In this document: piece after piece, positions 8,880-38,809 of the stretch | Layout of the letters: each line of letters opens with the position of its first letter | How positions within the stretch are numbered: the stretch's first letter is position 1 | DNA from: Nitrosopumilus sp. | GTDB lineage: Archaea; Thermoproteota; Nitrososphaeria; Nitrososphaerales; Nitrosopumilaceae | Assembly: GCA_965238275.1 (NCBI GenBank) | Contig: OZ250186.1 | Coordinates: 160,001-224,000 of the forward strand | DNA: 64,000 nucleotides | Reading direction: 5' to 3' | Program-made: the position numbers and the translations under genes | Notes under the pieces: generated by a model | Told to the model about the DNA's origin: nothing | What the model saw: only the letters and a program-made list of their open reading frames with translations | The model's database searches: none

Positions 8880-8881
8880 TA

Positions 8882-10127
8882 TACCAACAACGAAAAATTC
8901 ATGCTAAAACTCCCCCAATACCCTGAACCAATAACTCCGTCTGGAAATTAAAACGTCCGTGTGCATGTCCTGGAACCAGACATGGATCTTGGGGTCTGTG
9001 GATTTGGGGTATCGTGCATGGCACACGCTGTCTGCGTGTGTGTTCATCGTGGTTTGATGCCGTCTTAGATAACCCGGTACAGGAAATTTTCAACAACCAG
9101 GTTCGGTTTTTTGTACCTCGTGTATCTGGTGATCGCCTTGCGAAGCATGCTCAGGTTGGTGTATGACACGTCAAGGACTGCCCGCTTGAGATCCCGCCAG
9201 TACGTCTCTATGGCGCTCAGATCCGGGGTTGCAGTCGGCAAGAAGATTATCTCCAGGCCGTCTGTTTTCTCAACCAGTTTGCGTATGTTTGATGCCCTGT
9301 GCTGGGAGGCCCTGTCCATGATCAGGCAGATCTTCCTGAACTTGTATAATGCCTGTTTTAGAAAGTCTTCAAACGTGTCCTTGGTAAACGCGTCGTACTG
9401 TCTGAACATCCTCCTGCCGTCCGTGGTAAGCAGGCCGTGGAGTATCGTCTTGGAGTGTGAGCCGGTGTACGTGAAAAACGCCCGTATTCCCTTCCTGGTG
9501 TAGCCGCGTTTTCGTGGTCTGGCATCGGAGATTACTATGGACTCGTCCTGTATCGCTACGACTGTTCCCTCGTCGTTCTTTTTTTTATAAGATCCGGCAT
9601 CGTCTTTTGGAATTCCCTGATCTCGTCGTCAGGGGCCCTGCGCGCGTGCTTTCCTACAGGAACCTTCTGGGAATAGCCCCAGCTCCGCAGTATGTAGCGT
9701 ACGTGCATGATGTTGTATTTTATTCCGGTCTTCTGTTGGATGTATTCCTGCATCTCCCTGCCCGTCCATACCGTCTTCCTGCATGCGTTCTTCCTGATCC
9801 TCTTCAAGTCTGCCTTGCTCACTGTAGTGGGCCTGCCGGAGCGTGGCATGTCAGCCAGCCTGTCAAATCCAACTTCCAGGTAGCGCTCGTGCCACTTGTA
9901 GCCCCACGAGGCCGACTTTCCCAGGGATTTTGCAGAGTCCCTTATGGTTATTCCGTCACGTTTGATCCTGATGATGAGCATCATGCGGTCCTTGACGTTG
10001 CAGTCATTCTCAGCGGCGTATCTTTTCAGCATCGTCTTGATCTTCATTGACTATACAATTTGGGATGAGTATAACTCCGCACGTGGGAAAAATATTTTAC
10101 AATCACATGAAATTCTATTTGCCGGTA
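8882..10127 (-). mobile_element. IS630-family element, copy 1
   Basis: Imperfect TIRs TACCAACAACGAAAAATTCATG / TACCGGCAAATAGAATTTCATG; TA duplication at 8880-8881 and 10128-10129. Confidence 0.88.
9065..10047 (-). CDS. IS630 transposase (OrfA HTH + OrfB DDE joined by -1 frameshift)
   Basis: RSGRP HTH region; A-run at junction; -1 frame gives QDES...MDRASQH...PDLSAIE. Confidence 0.85.
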
Positions 10128-10160
10128 TAGTAGCAGTGTTGCAATCCCTTTCTGCCTGAT

Positions 10161-12895: not shown

Positions 12896-13224
12896 TTCTG
12901 CCCCTCCACGTTGTTATTGGTGGCATGGTTGTGAGTCGAGACAAAACCACACATGTTTGTTATACGTGTGCGTTGAATATAACCCGCATGGCAGTTGCAT
13001 TGTTCGCTTTCATCCAACCCATGAATGGTGTGGGATTTCCCGCTCATGTGTTAAATTATTTCATAACAGATTTTCTAAACTCATCCGGATCTGCCGGTGT
13101 ATTTCAAGGCGTCGTGTTTGTTCATCATTTTCGCCTCCGCTCGATGCATATTCCAACCCCAAATGATGGCGGTTATCTGCCCAAGCAATATTCGGTTTAT
13201 ATATCATAAGGCGTAAGTTATTTT

Positions 13225-29635: not shown

Positions 29636-30106
29636 AAGGATACAAGAACTTGCAAAAGAGTATCTTGTGGAATGGCAAGTGGTGGGAGATTATTTGCGAA
29701 AAATAAATAAAAATGAGAAAAAATTAATAAAATACGCAGACGAGGCACGGCTGCGCCTGGGTTCGGATGATTACGAGGACGGACAAAAAATGGTTTCAGA
29801 CATATTGAAACATATTGAAAAATTAAAAATCAAATTTTACATACACCGGAAAGAATCTGAACAAATTAGAATTAATATTGTTAAATTAAATCCCTACAAA
29901 AAGATGCGACCATGTCGTACACATTCCAGCTCAGCGTAAAGATCTATTGAATGGGATCGGTAAATCCTGCCGTTGGAGCGAACTTTTGGTCGTCAGTATA
30001 GGTCACTCATTTAACGCCCCATGACCGGCACCCGGTAATGTGGCAGAGCCTTGACGCGGGTTCTGTGTGATCTTAGAAGGTTACAAAAATCGTCCATATC
30101 CAACTA

Positions 30107-31361
30107 TACCAAAGATGAAAAATTGATGTGATTGTAAAATATTTTAACTCCATGTGAAATTATGCTTATTTCACGTAGCATAGTCAATGAAGATCAAGAC
30201 GATGTTGAAAAGATACGCCGCTGAGACAGACTGCGATACCAAGGACCGCATGATGCTGATCATCAGAGTCAAACGTGACGGGATAACCATGAGGGATTCT
30301 GCAAAATCCCTGGGAAAGTCAGCCTCGTGGGGCTACAAGTGGCACGAGCGCTACCTGGAAGTCGGATTTGACAGGCTGGGAAACATGCCGCGTTCCGGCA
30401 GGCCGACCAAGGCGAGCAAGGCAGACATGAAGAAGATCAGAAAGGCCGCATGCAGGAAACCTGTCTGGACGGGCATGGAGATGCAGCAATACATCCAACA
30501 GAAGACCGGAGTAAGGTACGAACTCGGATATGTGCGCCAGATACTGCGCGGGTGGGGCTATTCCCAGAAGGTTCCCGTAGGAAAACATGCAAGAAGGGCA
30601 CCTGACGAGGAGATCAGGAAATTCCAAAAAGAGATGCCAGAGCTTATAAAAAAAAGAACAGTGAAGGAACAGTCGTAGCGATACAGGACGAGTCCATAGT
30701 AATCTCCGATGCGCGGCCGCGAAGACGCGGCTACACCAGGAAGGGAATACGGGCGTTTTTCACGTACACCGGCTCACACTCCAAGACGATAATCCATGGA
30801 CTGATCACCACGGACGGCAGGGGCATGTTCCGGCAGTACGACGCGTTTACCAAGGACACCTTTGAGGACTTTCTAAGGCAGGCGATGTACAGGTTCAAGA
30901 AGATCTGCCTGATCATGGACAAGGCCTCCCAGCACAGGGCATCAAACATACGCAAACTGCTTGATGGCACAGACGGCCTGGAGATAGTCTTCCTGCCAAC
31001 TGCAACCCCGGACCTGAGCGCCATAGAGACGTACTGGAGGGATCTCAAACGGGCAGTGCTTGACGTGCCGTACACCAGCCTGAGCATGCTCCGCGAGGCG
31101 ATCACCAGGTACACGAGGTACAAAAAACCGAATCTGGTCGTTGAAAACTTTCTGTACAGGGCCATCTAGAACGACATCAAACCGCACCGGACCCACGCCG
31201 CCTAGCGTGTGCCATGCACGGCGCACCAGAGCATGCAATGTCTAATGTTCGGGGCGTCTTTTCTCGTCATTTGGGAATTCAACGCACCTCGTAATTTCCA
31301 GAGACGGCTGTTGCATCAAAAATTTATGAGCGATTTTGATATGAATTTTTCATTGCTGGTA
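30107..31361 (+). mobile_element. IS630-family element, copy 2
   Basis: TIRs TACCAAAGATGAAAAATTGAT / TACCAGCAATGAAAAATTCAT; TA at 30105-30106 and 31362-31363. Confidence 0.88.
30187..31169 (+). CDS. IS630 transposase (-1 frameshift at A-run ~30648-30655)
   Basis: Paralog of 9065-10047 with the same junction. Confidence 0.85.
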
Positions 31362-31400
31362 TATGCCATTACTATCTGCGTTAAAGGTCGGTGGTAAAAT

Positions 31401-33616: not shown

Positions 33617-34028
33617 AAAGAAAGGCGGAATTTCAAGACGCGTGGAACACGCACATACAAGCCAGAGATGCGCTGCCTGCGGGGTAGTGGACAAGAAATC
33701 CAGGAACGGCGAATCATTTGTCTGCGTCTCATGCGGATGGTGCCACCATGCCGACAAGAACGCGGCAAAAAACATTTTGGATAATGACTGTCTCCATACG
33801 GAGGAGACTGGCGGCCAAGCCCACGGGAATCGTGGAGGCACCATTGCAGGTGTCGAGGTCGTCACAAGGCGCGAGGATCACGGATCGGATGGTTCTGGAA
33901 TGAACAATTCGACAGGTCGGCTTGGATCCGACAACGACGACAATATTGGAAGGTCTGACAGAGCGCCGGAAAGAGCATCAGGACATGCTACAGAGAGATC
34001 TGTTTGCACGAATTTTCGCTCGCCGCTA
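33617..34028 (+). pseudogene. 3' fragment of a second copy of the TIR-bounded tnpB element
   Basis: Highly similar to 37653-38108; zinc finger + HADKNAAKNI; ends CGCCGCTA followed by TA. Confidence 0.85.
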
Positions 34029-34568
34029 TAGCAGGAATTTCATGTGACGTATGATGATTGCAGGTTGGTGTGCAGGAAAACAGGACATGCAAGAACATTT
34101 GCCAAGAGGTTTGTGGTATAAAAAAAACGGGCACATGGTGGAAGGCACAGCTCAGATCAGGCAAGATCCAAGGCATGCGGAATCTGGACAGATCATCCCG
34201 GGGCACAAAATACGGTGCGGCTGTAACAGAGAATTTGGCAGGATGGCTCTGTAACTGCTGCAGCACATGGTCATGCAGAATCCACGCGACAAGGAACACA
34301 GGAAAAGTTCAGAGGGATAAAATGATGATGACGGTGCAGAAAAATCCAAAACCCATGTTTTTCGGAACGTGGTATTTTCCCATTCTGCAGTATTTGGGAA
34401 GACAAAACATGCACATTCCATTTTGAGCGGTTCCATGGAATGCGCGTTAAAAGGCATGCCCAGAGATGCAGCGGGAGGCACCTAGGGATCCAGAGGGCAG
34501 GATGGGTTACAGTATATGGCATTTTCCTGCAGGCATACCATCACGCACAGAACCCAGATTATAATGAA

Positions 34569-34789: not shown

Positions 34790-36598
34790 ATGACCCACCG
34801 CGTTGCAGTGCTTGACAAGGAGCTGTGCATGCCAAGAAAGTGCGGCCTGGAGTGCATAAAGTACTGCCCGGTCAACAAGTCAGGCGCAGACTGCATAGCA
34901 CTTGACGAGGAGACAAAGAAGGCCAGAATAGACGAGGACATCTGCAACGGCTGTGGCATATGCGTCAAGGTCTGCCCGTTTGATGCAATCACCATAGTAA
35001 ACCTGGCAACAGAGCTTGCAACAGACAAGATCCACCAGTACGGCCCCAACTCGTTCAGGCTTTACAGGCTTCCTGCACCAAAGAAGGGCCAGGTCGTCGG
35101 ACTCTTGGGAAGAAACGGGATGGGAAAGAGCACAGTCATCAACATACTCTCCGGCAGCATAAAGCCGAACCTTGGAAGGTACGAGGATCCCCCGGAATGG
35201 GACGAGATTCTGAAATATTACAGCGGAACCGAATTAAAACACCACTTTGAGATGATCATGCAAAAGCAGATCCGCGCCTCAATGAAGCCCCAGCAGGTAC
35301 ACAGCATAGCGCAGGCCTTTGGCGGGACCGGAAGGGAGCTGCTGGACAGGTACGACCAGAGGGGCGTGTCGCGTGAGATGGTAAGGGAGCTGGGCCTGCA
35401 AAACTCCATGGAGCAGCCGTTGGCTGAGCTCAGTGGGGGGGAGCTTCAGAGGCTGGCAGTGGCAGCAGCAGCCTCCCGGGATGCCGAGTTTTACTTTTTT
35501 GACGAGCCGTCCTCGTACAACGACGTATTCCAGAGGACGTCGGTGGCCCGCGTGATACAGGGGCTGGCAGACATTGGAAGGAGCGTGATGGTAGTCGAGC
35601 ACGACCTTACCCTGCTTGATTTCCTGAGCGACCAGATAGAGGTGCTGTACGGGGAGCCTGCAGCATACGGGATAGTCTCAAGCGTTCTTTCAACCAAGGT
35701 CGGAATCAACGTGTTCCTTGACGGGTACCTGCCGGGAGAAAACGTCAGGTTCAGGGACAAAAAGTTCTCCTTTGATGCATCTTCCTCATCGACTGACATA
35801 TTCCAGGAGGGAAGCGACACAGTCTCGTACCCCGGCATCACCAAGAGTTATCCCTCGTTTTCAGTGGCAGTAGAGCCGGGACGGGTGCGAAAGGGCGAGG
35901 TCCTAGGGATAATGGGCGCAAACGCCCTTGGCAAGACGACCATGATGAAGATGATTGCAGGTAATGTGGAGCCGGATACTGGCAGCATCAAACAGAACGT
36001 AAAGATAGCATACAAGCCGCAGTACCTGCAGGGCGACATTCCAGCAGAGGTGGTTACCGTGCTTGAGAGGGCAAACGGCGCCTCCATAGAGGGTAGTGCC
36101 GAAGAGGAGCAGATTCTGGAACCGCTAAAGATCAAAAAACTCTACAACAAGCAGGTAAGATCCCTGTCCGGAGGAGAGCTGCAAAAGGTTGCAGTGGCAT
36201 CGTGCCTGTTGCAGAAGGTGGACCTGTATGCGCTTGATGAGCCGTCTGCATTCCTGGACGTGGAGGACAGGATCGCAGTGGCAAAGTTCCTGCAAAAGTT
36301 CGTCCGCTCGTTTGGCAAGTCGGCAATAGTGATAGACCATGACCTGCAGCTGATGGACCTAATCTCGGACAGCATGGTGATATTTGAGGGGGAGTCTGGT
36401 GTGGCAGGCCATGCCACCTCCCCCATGCCAAAGGCTGCGGCCATGAACAGGTTTCTCAAATCCCTGGAGATCTCCTTTAGAAGGGACGAGAGAAGCCTCA
36501 GGCCCCGCGTAAACAAGGCTGGAAGCAGGCTGGACAAGAGCCAAAAGTCATCAGGCGACTTTTACTATAGTGAAAAGCGAAAGTCCGTGCAATTTTGA
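34790..36598 (+). CDS. Ribosome recycling ATPase ABCE1/RLI (C-terminus altered by element insertion)
   Basis: N-terminal Fe-S cysteines, two ABC domains (GRNGMGKS, LSGGELQ x2), RPRVNK. Confidence 0.95.
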   Translation: MTHRVAVLDKELCMPRKCGLECIKYCPVNKSGADCIALDEETKKARIDEDICNGCGICVKVCPFDAITIVNLATELATDKIHQYGPNSFRLYRLPAPKKGQVVGLLGRNGMGKSTVINILSGSIKPNLGRYEDPPEWDEILKYYSGTELKHHFEMIMQKQIRASMKPQQVHSIAQAFGGTGRELLDRYDQRGVSREMVRELGLQNSMEQPLAELSGGELQRLAVAAAASRDAEFYFFDEPSSYNDVFQRTSVARVIQGLADIGRSVMVVEHDLTLLDFLSDQIEVLYGEPAAYGIVSSVLSTKVGINVFLDGYLPGENVRFRDKKFSFDASSSSTDIFQEGSDTVSYPGITKSYPSFSVAVEPGRVRKGEVLGIMGANALGKTTMMKMIAGNVEPDTGSIKQNVKIAYKPQYLQGDIPAEVVTVLERANGASIEGSAEEEQILEPLKIKKLYNKQVRSLSGGELQKVAVASCLLQKVDLYALDEPSAFLDVEDRIAVAKFLQKFVRSFGKSAIVIDHDLQLMDLISDSMVIFEGESGVAGHATSPMPKAAAMNRFLKSLEISFRRDERSLRPRVNKAGSRLDKSQKSSGDFYYSEKRKSVQF

Positions 36599-36633
36599 GA
36601 TCCTTTTTAAGAAAATAAATCCCAACTACAGGT

Positions 36634-37995
36634 ATGATTGTCAGCAAAATCATCAAGATAACACAATCTCGGGAACTATCACGCAAGATCGTGAAGTGTT
36701 CCCGGGAAACTGACATCGTTTACGACATGACAATCATGATGAAACTTGCACATCCCAGAATCACGCAGTTTGACATCAACAACCTGATAACGAGATGGCG
36801 CAGGGAATTCAGCCTGACCAGCAGCGTCTGCATGCATGAGGCCGCCTCAAAACATGCTTTCCAGGCGGCAGTCAAATTCGGCAAGGCAAACCGGCTCAAG
36901 CACAACAAGCGCATCTGGCGCAAGAAACAGATCAAGATGGGGAAAAAGAAAACGTACAGGCACAATCGGTGGACCGAGCCGTCCGGCCTGATGAGGCGCG
37001 GCAGGAAAACAACCAGGCTGCGCTCGCTGAATTCACGCGGAAAGCCAAAACTGCGAGACAGCGGAGCCGTATTTCTGCCCGGACTCGGGGAAGTAAGGCC
37101 GCGCACGAGGGTTCCAGAAGGTAGACTGGTGTCATTCCAGATGGTTGATATCACAGGCAAAATCACGCGCAAGACCAAGGATGGTGATCGCGAATTCAAA
37201 CTGCATTTGCAGACAGAAGTCCCAGATACCGAACCCGCTACAGGCGGATGCAAGGCGGGGCTGGATCTTGGAGTCAGGCACCTTGCGGCAGTCGCAGACG
37301 AGGACGGGAACGAAAAACTGTACAATGTCCCGGGAGGCTGCAAGAGGCATGACGGCGACAGGATTGATCATCTGAAATCGCTCAGATCAAGATGCCAGAC
37401 AGGCTCCAGAAGATGGAAAGAGATCGGACGCAAGATAGCGCATGAATTGAAAAAGACATCAAACAGGCAAAAACACAACGAGATAGGCATTGCCCGTCGG
37501 ATAACAAAAGGACTGTCCGTATTGTTCTTGGAAGACCTGGATTTGACCAAGATGAGGAGATCCAACGGAGCAGCCTCAAAGACTGGGCTGAACCGCGAGA
37601 TGGCCTATTCCAGAATGGGCGAGTTCAGGATCCAGTTTGAATGGCAGATGAAAAAGAAAGGTGGAATTACAAAACGCGTGGAATCCGCACATACAAGCCA
37701 GAGATGCGCTGCCTGCCAAATAGTGGATAAAAAGTCCAGAAACGGCGAATCATTTGTCTGCACCTCATGCGGATGGTGCCACCATGCCGACAAGAACGCG
37801 GCAAAAAATATTTTTGATAGTGACTGTCTCCATACGGAGGAGACTGGCGGTCAAGCCCACGTGAATCGTGGAGGCACCATACGAGAAGATCAGGGAGGAG
37901 GTAAGAAAATCGTGGAGGCACCATTGCAGGTGTCGAGGTCGTCACAAGGCGCGAGGATCACGGATCGGGTAGTTCTGGAATGGACGACTCGATAG
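36634..37995 (+). CDS. tnpB: TnpB-family RNA-guided endonuclease with divergent N-terminus
   Basis: GLDLG, FLEDL, CAAC..CTSC, HADKNAAKNI; catalytic D-E-D intact. Confidence 0.85.
   Translation: MIVSKIIKITQSRELSRKIVKCSRETDIVYDMTIMMKLAHPRITQFDINNLITRWRREFSLTSSVCMHEAASKHAFQAAVKFGKANRLKHNKRIWRKKQIKMGKKKTYRHNRWTEPSGLMRRGRKTTRLRSLNSRGKPKLRDSGAVFLPGLGEVRPRTRVPEGRLVSFQMVDITGKITRKTKDGDREFKLHLQTEVPDTEPATGGCKAGLDLGVRHLAAVADEDGNEKLYNVPGGCKRHDGDRIDHLKSLRSRCQTGSRRWKEIGRKIAHELKKTSNRQKHNEIGIARRITKGLSVLFLEDLDLTKMRRSNGAASKTGLNREMAYSRMGEFRIQFEWQMKKKGGITKRVESAHTSQRCAACQIVDKKSRNGESFVCTSCGWCHHADKNAAKNIFDSDCLHTEETGGQAHVNRGGTIREDQGGGKKIVEAPLQVSRSSQGARITDRVVLEWTTR
37864..37924 (+). repeat. 17-bp direct repeat flanking a 27-nt IS66-like spacer
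   Basis: AATCGTGGAGGCACCAT-ACGAGAAGATCAGGGAGGAGGTAAGAA-AATCGTGGAGGCACCAT; only one repeat copy in the paralog near 33828. Confidence 0.85.
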
Positions 37996-38209
37996 GTCGG
38001 CTTGGACCCGACAGCGACGACAATATTGGAAGGTCTGACAGAGCGCCGGAAAGAGCACCAGGACATGCTACAGAGAAATCTGTTTGTACGAACTTTTGCT
38101 CGCCGCTATACAAGTGATTTACGGTGCCTCTTGTGCGGAACGGAAATCAGGACGCAATTGATCATGACCATGCCCGGAACAGGCCGCATCAGGGCAATAG
38201 CAATACCTG

Positions 38210-38809
38210 TTGAAGCATTCGGCCACAAGAGGCTCATGCGATGAACATCAAGAGGGTCATTTTTGGCCGTTATGCAATTCTGCAAATGGGTCTACTGGCA
38301 GCATCACAGATATAGAACATGCACGCAAGTGTGAGAAATTGGGAAACAACGAGTATACGCCTGACGTAAAAAAGGGCATGGAGCTGGCCGAAAGGTGGGA
38401 ATATCGCAAGGCGGCCAGGTGTTTTGAGAGGGAGATAAGGCGTAATCCTGAAAATTATACTGCGTATATAAACGGCGTTCTGATATTGTTTCGGAGTGGG
38501 CAGTACAACAAGGCACTCAGATATGCCAACAGGTCAATAGAGATAGCCCCGGCCGAATCCATGGCACATCTCAACAAGGGAGCGCTGCTCAGCGAGGTTG
38601 ATGACCATGATGGCGCAATCAGGTGTTTTGACGAGGCAATAAGACTGGATACATACGGATGGGCCGGGTATTTTAACAGGGGCATGTCGCTGATGGAACT
38701 GGGAAGGGATAAAGAGGCAGTAGAGTGTTTCGATAAGGTTCTAGAGTTGGATCCTGGCAATGAAATTGCATTCGCCAGCAGGGCAGAGCTATTGGAGAAA
38801 AATGGATAG
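38210..38809 (+). CDS. TPR protein (true start probably ~38339; likely truncated)
   Basis: ~4 TPRs (AIRCFDEAIRLD, AVECFDKVLELDP); TPR-like text continues after TAG. Confidence 0.75.
   Translation: MKHSATRGSCDEHQEGHFWPLCNSANGSTGSITDIEHARKCEKLGNNEYTPDVKKGMELAERWEYRKAARCFEREIRRNPENYTAYINGVLILFRSGQYNKALRYANRSIEIAPAESMAHLNKGALLSEVDDHDGAIRCFDEAIRLDTYGWAGYFNRGMSLMELGRDKEAVECFDKVLELDPGNEIAFASRAELLEKNG

Follow-up and report, generated by a model that had tools for sequence, protein, structure and literature searches.

TnpB is the ancestor of Cas12. A natural role has been established for it only in IS200/IS605 elements, whose excision leaves no scar. A 2026 review describes the benefit of TnpB to cut-and-paste DDE transposons as unsettled (PMC13565253), and Meers et al., in their account of the restorative homing model (bioRxiv 10.1101/2023.03.14.532601), use IS630 only as a negative control. 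The pairing of TnpB with IS630-type ends was already published in 2023. Altae-Tran et al. (PMC10691335) describe a TnpB branch, DDE-6, that is linked to IS630 DDE transposases and a helix-turn-helix (HTH) protein within symmetrical ends, as well as solo TnpBs with ends like those of complete elements, which they propose to be mobilized in trans; the 2026 review restates both points. In Fanzors, the eukaryotic relatives, the 5' target duplication is described as part of the target-adjacent motif (TAM) and the 3' duplication as part of the RNA scaffold (PMC13565253). Here, we describe an archaeal member of the TnpB-IS630 pairing, a tnpB element inserted into the ABCE1 gene of a Nitrosopumilus sp. 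It lies in a stretch of 64,000 nt (the window; positions 160,001 to 224,000 of contig OZ250186.1) from a genome, G000, that consists of a single 2,216,668-bp contig and is 99.9% complete.

We assign a probability of about 0.75 to the following explanation as a whole: the element in ABCE1 is a decaying copy of a ~1.5-kb non-autonomous family, which is moved by the transposase of a resident IS630 subgroup, IS630-D, and retained through TnpB.

A TnpB element in ABCE1 flanked by a duplicated TA

The ABCE1 (RNase L inhibitor) gene, recognized by its Pfam domains (ABC_tran, Fer4_RLI, and Fer4) and by the C termini of its orthologues, extends in its present reading from 34790 to 36598 on the plus strand and encodes 602 amino acids. 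At the left junction (36560-36592), ...GGCGACTTTTAC is followed by a TA at 36566-36567 and then by TAGTGAAAAGCGAAAGTCCGTGCAA, the left terminal inverted repeat (36568-36592, plus strand), which we identified by the family consensus and its likeness to IS630-D ends. The right junction (38084-38117) reads TTGTACGAACTTTTGCTCGCCGCTA, a second TA at 38109-38110, and CAAGTGA; the right terminal inverted repeat occupies 38084-38108 on the minus strand (reverse complement TAGCGGCGAGCAAAAGTTCGTACAA). These 25-nt inverted ends match at 18 of 25 positions by hand count. Deleting the element and one TA in silico restores GGC GAC TTT TAC TAC AAG TGA, which encodes GDFYYK*. The imperfect repeats, the TA on both sides, and the restored ending had all been described in an earlier reading of this stretch made from its sequence alone (the original prediction), and all are confirmed here.

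Empty sites bear out the further claim that the TA is a target duplication of the IS630 type. In the closest relative, G017, the ABCE1 orthologue (93% amino acid identity) ends GACTTTTACTACAAATAG, which likewise encodes GDFYYK* and holds a single TA. The other 16 readable orthologues in the genus end (F/Y)Y(Y/H)(K/R)(H/N/K)* and are one residue longer (17 of 18 same-genus loci were readable; locus L058 is cut). Only one TA is likewise present in ...TACTA|CAGGTGATCT, the sequence of a contig from an RNA library (run X18) derived from a relative that is ~91% identical; contigs from this library cannot reveal RNA ends or prove transcription. Two other copies of the element reside in paralogous sequences belonging to two families, whose uninterrupted paralogues hold exactly 2 nt at the junction, while the filled sites read TA...TA at the same position. 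Because these four empty sites hold one TA or 2 nt, a 2-bp TA duplication is supported. Two other arrangements were rejected: a 3-bp duplication (CTA) predicts an extra TA in the empty site, which the orthologue does not have, and ownership of both TAs by the element, with no duplication, predicts empty sites free of any spacer, where 2 nt were observed. The orthologous sites of copies L003 and L006 fall in neighborhoods that are rearranged in G017.

The ends are no chance resemblance, as they recur across G000, which carries 22 full-length or split copies, plus fragments, at mutual identities of 77 to 99%. TATAG...CTATA is present at every intact end, and TA flanks all of them; the consensus ends (left, TATAGTGAAAAGCGAAAGTTCGTGCAA; right, as the reverse complement, TATAGCGGCGAGCGAAAGTTCGTGCAA) match at 23 of 27 positions. 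A second copy in the window is truncated at its 5' side and retains the last 414 bp (33617-34030, plus strand), comprising the omegaRNA region, the right inverted repeat, and TA. It also ends ...CGCCGCTATA and diverges beyond, as originally noted.

The insertion has swapped the native ABCE1 end, ...GDFYYK*, for ...GDFYYSEKRKSVQF*, so that the final 31 nt of the gene are derived from the element. The end of this essential protein is changed from YYK* to YYSEKRKSVQF* (36566-36598). In all same-strain contigs of three DNA-type sequencing runs the site is occupied (fixed), and the altered C terminus is therefore evidently tolerated.

The element encodes a canonical TnpB and no transposase

The tnpB open reading frame (ORF) of the window copy (36634-37995, plus strand; 453 amino acids) matches OrfB_IS605 (PF01385; 51.8 bits, cutoff 30.5) and the Cas12f1-like TNB domain (PF07282; 56.2 bits, cutoff 26.3). 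Its GLDLG, LEDL, and HADKN motifs align with the catalytic motifs of solved TnpBs, including ISDra2 TnpB, in agreement with the earlier description of an intact RuvC D-E-D triad. Across 14 family members, D215 and D390 are invariant and E304 is nearly so. By its Pfam domains and D-E-D motifs, the protein is a canonical TnpB, and RNA-guided, TAM-dependent cleavage is predicted for it. tnpB is the only long ORF in the element. No DDE_3 transposase is encoded, which makes the element a non-autonomous derivative rather than an IS630 element proper.

A six-frame Pfam search of the whole of G000 returned 34 DDE_3/IS630 matches and no match to either Y1_Tnp (PF01797) or Resolvase (PF00239), extending to the full genome the observation that tnpA and a serine recombinase are missing. 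The same two profiles found nothing in G017, G129, and G076, which also carry TnpBs of this clade. These four genomes are complete or near-complete, and positive controls for Y1_Tnp and Resolvase were detected in 6 and 12, respectively, of 14 known genomes. This result weighs heavily against an IS200/IS605- or IS607-type element whose Y1 or serine TnpA acts in trans, with TA as the target or crossover dinucleotide. In favor of such an origin, TnpB is usually associated with these families, identical dinucleotides on both sides are also expected from a serine recombinase, and IS605 targets typically show a conserved motif solely 5' of the left end. Nonetheless, the 27-bp inverted repeats are common to DDE_3-encoding IS630 copies, and no significant hairpin was found at the left end (z = -1.1, -1.4, and +1.5). 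We regard this origin as largely refuted and extremely improbable.

IS630-D is the probable source of the transposase

The resident IS630 copies form several groups with different ends. Compared over 27 positions, the ends of the TnpB elements match those of group D (IS630-D) at 17 to 25 positions, those of group B at 12 to 16, and those of groups A and C at 8 to 13. The likeness to resident IS630 repeats pointed out in the original prediction is thus real, but the comparison had been made with group B, and the true cognate is group D. The best pairs of ends agree at 23 of 27 positions in G000 and at 25 of 27 in G017, where the left end of TnpB subfamily 1 is identical to the IS630-D left end over its first 19 nt (19/19). 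The best local partner, G000:1873253-1874348, is 1,096 bp long, is flanked by TA, and encodes, at 1873267-1874277, an intact 337-amino-acid transposase (DDE_3, 76.8 bits, above the cutoff); it shares only its ends with the TnpB element.

A comparison of coordinates in G000 and G017 found no tnpB copy adjoining an IS630-D transposase. At a threshold of at least 60% identity, IS630-D is confined to G000 and G017 among 81 genomes of the genus, the same two in which close members of the TnpB family occur there. These are sister species, and the co-occurrence counts once. Judged by the ends and the TA duplication, the element is most likely mobilized in trans, through cut-and-paste transposition by the DDE enzyme of IS630-D.

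The left flank carries a strictly conserved C

We counted by hand the flanking bases at positions -1 and -3; the left-flank counts exclude copies 828589 and 2148268. C precedes the left TA in 21/21 copies in G000 and 16/16 in G017 (37/37 in both), as well as in the one copy in G129 (1/1) and in a further copy on an X18 contig (1/1). At the right end, the counterpart base is C in only 10 of 24 cases in G000 (G in 9, T in 4, and A in 1) and 6 of 17 in G017, or 16/41 in total (Fisher test, left versus right, p = 6e-10). In IS630-D elements without TnpB, from G000, G017, and G076, C is found at 8 of 17 ends, namely 5/9 on the left and 3/8 on the right, which also differs from 37/37 (p = 5e-6). Across G000, a TA is preceded by C with a frequency of 0.168, which gives a binomial p of 6e-17 for 21/21. 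Position -3 is T at 17 of the 21 left ends in G000, while the 16 in G017 have A (10), G (4), or T (2). From copy to copy, the right flanks are unrelated.

The left C is target derived, since it is present in all empty sites. Because TA occurs at the right junction of the element as well as in the empty site, a TAM that tells them apart must use the bases before it; the empty site has C there, and the right junction has A (...CTA-TA). From these flanks, we infer that N-C-TA is the TnpB TAM and that the strict C arises from TAM-dependent restoration of excised copies. In the window copy, the predicted TAM, (T)-N-C-T-A, corresponds to the T-A-C of the left flank together with the left TA (36563-36567, plus strand), as judged by flank counts and empty sites. 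The motif predicted at the outset, ...TTTTAC/TA, fits this conserved flank.

The strict left C could instead reflect asymmetric integration target choice: IS630-D would still move the element in trans, and the preference would belong to an asymmetric transposase-end complex and have nothing to do with TnpB. The transposase does have some flank preference, because the right ends are biased too, if more weakly (position -1 is C or G in 19/24 and position -3 is T in 13/24; hand count, p ~0.002), and the left and right repeats differ at positions 6 to 12. Against this reading, the left and right ends of IS630-D elements that lack TnpB show C at the modest rates given above, despite the 19/19 identity of an IS630-D left end to the G017 subfamily 1 left end. 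The C is moreover kept across three TnpB subfamilies with differing end sequences, and the empty site (C-TA) and the right junction (A-TA) differ at this position alone. We therefore consider an integration preference an unlikely, though credible, account of the C.

Several observations on the flanks stand apart from these counts. The two IS630 group B copies in the window lie at 8880-10132 (minus strand) and 30105-31363 (plus strand). In group B, the TA is frequently preceded by G and followed by C, a pattern that points to a symmetrical GTAC target and differs from the C on one side alone in the TnpB elements. The uninterrupted paralogues (window 12924-13056; G000:576370-576501; G000:759530-759758 and 762265-762493) keep the left T-N-C and a closely matching right flank, with a perfect match over ~26 nt in one case, and carry AA or TG in place of the TA of the filled site (four sites, two families). 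This could be due to chance, or sites with an intact TAM and target could be ones that are not tolerated. In the two copies left out of the counts (G000:828589-830106 and 2146754-2148268), the first ~17 nt of the left repeat are replaced by a foreign sequence, GCCCGTAACACATGGGA..., that is found at two other loci too.

A predicted omegaRNA reaches into the right repeat

We aligned the last ~260 nt of 18 elements, comprising 8 of the 22 G000 copies and 10 of the 17 G017 copies, and folded the alignment with RNAalifold. The predicted structure contains ten helices with 51 pairs, 22 of which show compensatory changes on both sides. Of the cells in the alignment, 98.1% can pair, versus 33 to 45% when partners are slid by 1 to 3 columns, and none of 500 shuffles reached the observed covariation. 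In helix 10, GAGC pairs with GCTC inside the right inverted repeat, so that the repeat at 38084-38108 holds the 3' arm of this helix. The suggestion that the right repeat doubles as the 3' end of an omegaRNA is supported by this covariation. The scaffold region thus delimited is ~245 nt long in intact copies and spans 37825-38108 (plus strand) in the window copy, where it is split by a 44-nt insertion. A search of Rfam found no match within 36400-38300 at E values up to 1.

The codon positions of tnpB point in the same direction. Among the 14 intact copies, diversity at positions 1/2/3 is 0.090/0.079/0.184 in the core of the ORF and 0.066/0.054/0.069 in the tail that overlaps the RNA. Because the tail shows no third-position excess, it is constrained as RNA and not as protein. 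In sequence terms, this structured tail fits an omegaRNA that overlaps the 3' end of tnpB and reads out into the flank. By analogy with the TnpB and Fanzor architecture (PMC13565253), the right flank CAAGTGATTTACGGTGCCTC (38111-38130, plus strand) is the predicted guide and target of the window copy. If the arrangement described for Fanzors in the same source applies, the guide probably begins beyond the right TA with CAAGTGATTT... rather than with TACAAG.

In L003 (1571-3015) and most intact G000 copies, the tnpB ORF remains open through the whole right repeat (...SVCTNFRSPL, then TA+N), and this frame is also the one that the IS630-D transposase uses across the right repeat of its element (...LFCKNF*; L091:565-1578, minus strand). 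This shared frame is probably incidental; the ORFs in G017 stop earlier, and the tail is without a codon-position signature.

The window copy is degraded, and the family persists

The 44-nt insertion in the window copy (37864-37907, plus strand) falls in the region of omegaRNA helix 4 and, in the alignment of copies, is private to this copy. It consists of a 17-nt local duplication (AATCGTGGAGGCACCAT) and 27 nt identical to part of a genomic repeat with five copies, and it resembles a break repair scar. The joint 37863>37908, which skips the 44 nt, is present in four of four sequencing runs and originates from other copies. The C-terminal tail of the window tnpB is frameshifted relative to the form of 481 to 483 amino acids in intact copies. 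With repeats matching at 18/25, a scar in its omegaRNA, and a frameshifted tail, the window copy is probably no longer functional.

Such damage would be expected if the whole family were a dead relic, its copies immobile and its TnpB either decaying or recruited for a host function. Besides the damaged window copy, the tnpB ORF is broken in 7 of the 21 copies examined, and there are no recent identical copies. The remaining 14 of the 21, on the other hand, keep a full ORF of 474 to 493 amino acids, and G000:316779-318221 is an example of an intact tnpB; their twofold diversity at third codon positions indicates purifying selection. Across genomes, compensatory changes preserve the omegaRNA pairs, and the repeats are likewise maintained. 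Related subfamilies have undergone an independent amplification in G017, where copies are as much as 96% alike. We consider a dead family improbable. Copies 616534 and 644182 of G000 are 99.1% alike, share the same 93-bp foreign insertion that breaks tnpB, and have differing flanks on both sides. The simplest account of this pair, to judge from the alignments, appears to be that a TnpB-dead copy moved; gene conversion is the alternative.

The 93-bp insertion is a miniature inverted-repeat element (90 bp plus a 3-bp duplication) with a CWG duplication and ends AGACRTAATCCGTAAT... that is found in three copies of the TnpB element, at L017, L019, and L011 (G000:615466-615558, 643114-643206, and 1821626-1821717). 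A separate insertion sequence of ~1.8 kb, present in at least five identical copies, lies within the left repeat of copy 644182 (G000:644171-645960) with an 8-bp duplication, AAAGTTCG.

Relatives occur in few genomes

Among the 81 genomes of the genus, G000 and G017 alone had close relatives of the TnpB, G076 and G057 had distant ones, and a profile search over 106 genomes added one further close copy, in G129. A scan of genome contigs found the family in G017 only, and a scan of metagenome contigs found no relative. G017 carries 17 copies in two or three subfamilies, which share 45 to 58% amino acid identity with the G000 copies and all have IS630-D-type inverted repeats with TA on both sides. 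The more distant TnpBs in G129, G122, and G125 have no IS630-D-like ends near the gene, and the boundaries of their elements are undefined.

G076, from another species of the genus, holds a TnpB family (L071, L075, L079, and L083) that is 29 to 31% identical and resides on a different inverted-repeat element, with ends GGGAATTAYATAC and AT-rich target duplications of 7 to 9 bp, in a genome without matches to a Y1 or serine TnpA. It looks like a second, independent case of a TnpB on a DDE-type carrier. In the genomes examined, the TnpBs of these ammonia-oxidizing archaea live only on DDE-type carriers.

How TnpB could retain copies of the element

In the explanation that we favor, the mobile unit comprises 27-bp IS630-D-type inverted repeats, tnpB, and a predicted omegaRNA of ~245 nt that overlaps the 3' tail of the ORF and places its last helix in the right repeat. 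The IS630-D DDE transposase would insert this unit at a TA and thereby duplicate the dinucleotide. Transcription through the right repeat and the TA into the flank would give each copy a guide matching its own empty site, which TnpB would recognize through a TAM made of the left flank N-C and the TA. The element's right junction, ...C-T-A-TA, would be spared by the A in place of the TAM C. After excision, TnpB would cut the resealed empty site, and repair from the element-bearing sister chromosome would restore the copy. Copies beside C-TA would thus be retained and increase in number, and those at other sites would disappear on excision, as the flank statistics suggest.

The part of this scheme that assigns the choice of persisting insertions to TnpB and its omegaRNA, with a transposase that lands at any S-TA-S in either orientation and restoration limited to copies with a left C-TA, is in our view evenly poised between right and wrong. 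If it holds, surviving copies should accumulate beside the TAM, and a TnpB-bearing parasite should come to outnumber its TnpB-less helper (22 versus 4 in G000). The TAM would also have drifted between subfamilies, from T-N-C-TA in G000 to R-N-C-TA in G017 or the reverse, and the family would offer evidence from nature that restorative homing operates for archaeal DDE elements.

Several points weigh against this explanation. The best repeat match in G000 is 23/27 rather than identity, and the IS630-D variant that provides it is single copy. No excised ABCE1 allele was found in same-strain contigs from the three DNA-type runs (X1 to X3), which as contigs drop rare variants. There are no identical copies (98.9% at most, the 99.1% pair apart), and current activity is therefore only putative. 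The IS630-D control is small, with 17 ends from three genomes; three further ends (A, C, and G) bring its C count to 9/20. Related copies are also not fully independent events. Finally, as PMC13565253 points out, cut-and-paste transposition by a DDE enzyme itself leaves a double-strand break, to which TnpB might add little.

Comparison with known systems

As in DDE-6 (PMC10691335), the TnpB described here lies inside symmetrical IS630-type inverted repeats, with its 3' end within 250 bp of the transposon end. Unlike in that branch as described, where a DDE transposase and a separate HTH protein share the element of TnpB, the copies in G000 and G017 have no transposase, the presumed helper IS630-D is without TnpB, and the host is archaeal. 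In the paper collection searched, none contained both "TnpB" and "Nitrosopumil*"; the supplements of PMC10691335 may already list these archaeal proteins. The resemblance extends to Fanzor1 in eukaryotic Tc1/mariner and other DDE transposons, which according to PMC13565253 and PMC10711439 likewise combine inverted repeats, a TA duplication, and a flank-derived guide, with the right repeat and 3' duplication ending the guide RNA scaffold and the 5' duplication in the TAM. The present protein is a prokaryotic TnpB of ordinary size with a canonical D-E-D; it is matched by the Pfam models for TnpB and is not a Fanzor.

The RuvC fold and catalytic residues align with those of ISDra2 TnpB of the IS200/IS605 family (PDB 8h1j and 8exa; E = 1e-8). 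As in ISDra2, the predicted omegaRNA overlaps the 3' end of tnpB, and the predicted TAM is on the left and the predicted guide on the right. The differences from ISDra2 lie in the ends and the enzyme: there are no Y1 TnpA and no subterminal hairpins but inverted repeats and a 2-bp duplication, and a DDE enzyme would carry out the excision, leaving a scar.

What the present locus adds is a matched TnpB-less helper, a well-supported predicted omegaRNA that reaches into the inverted repeat, and a one-sided C. The same genomes hold a matched pair, a TnpB-less IS630 subgroup and TnpB/omegaRNA elements with the same type of end, which differ at a single flank base. The one-sided C supplies a concrete TAM prediction for the question of whether TnpB helps cut-and-paste DDE elements. 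Together they make a clean natural test system for IS630-linked TnpB, in which the flanks hint at how the nuclease aids persistence of the element. A further parallel is offered by the miniature inverted-repeat transposable elements (MITEs) of the IS630/Tc1 group, non-autonomous derivatives that borrow the ends of autonomous IS630 elements. Like them, the TnpB elements have borrowed ends, a TA duplication, and a copy number above that of the helper (22 versus 4); unlike them, they carry a 1.4-kb cargo, a nuclease gene and a guide RNA, which may itself raise their copy number.

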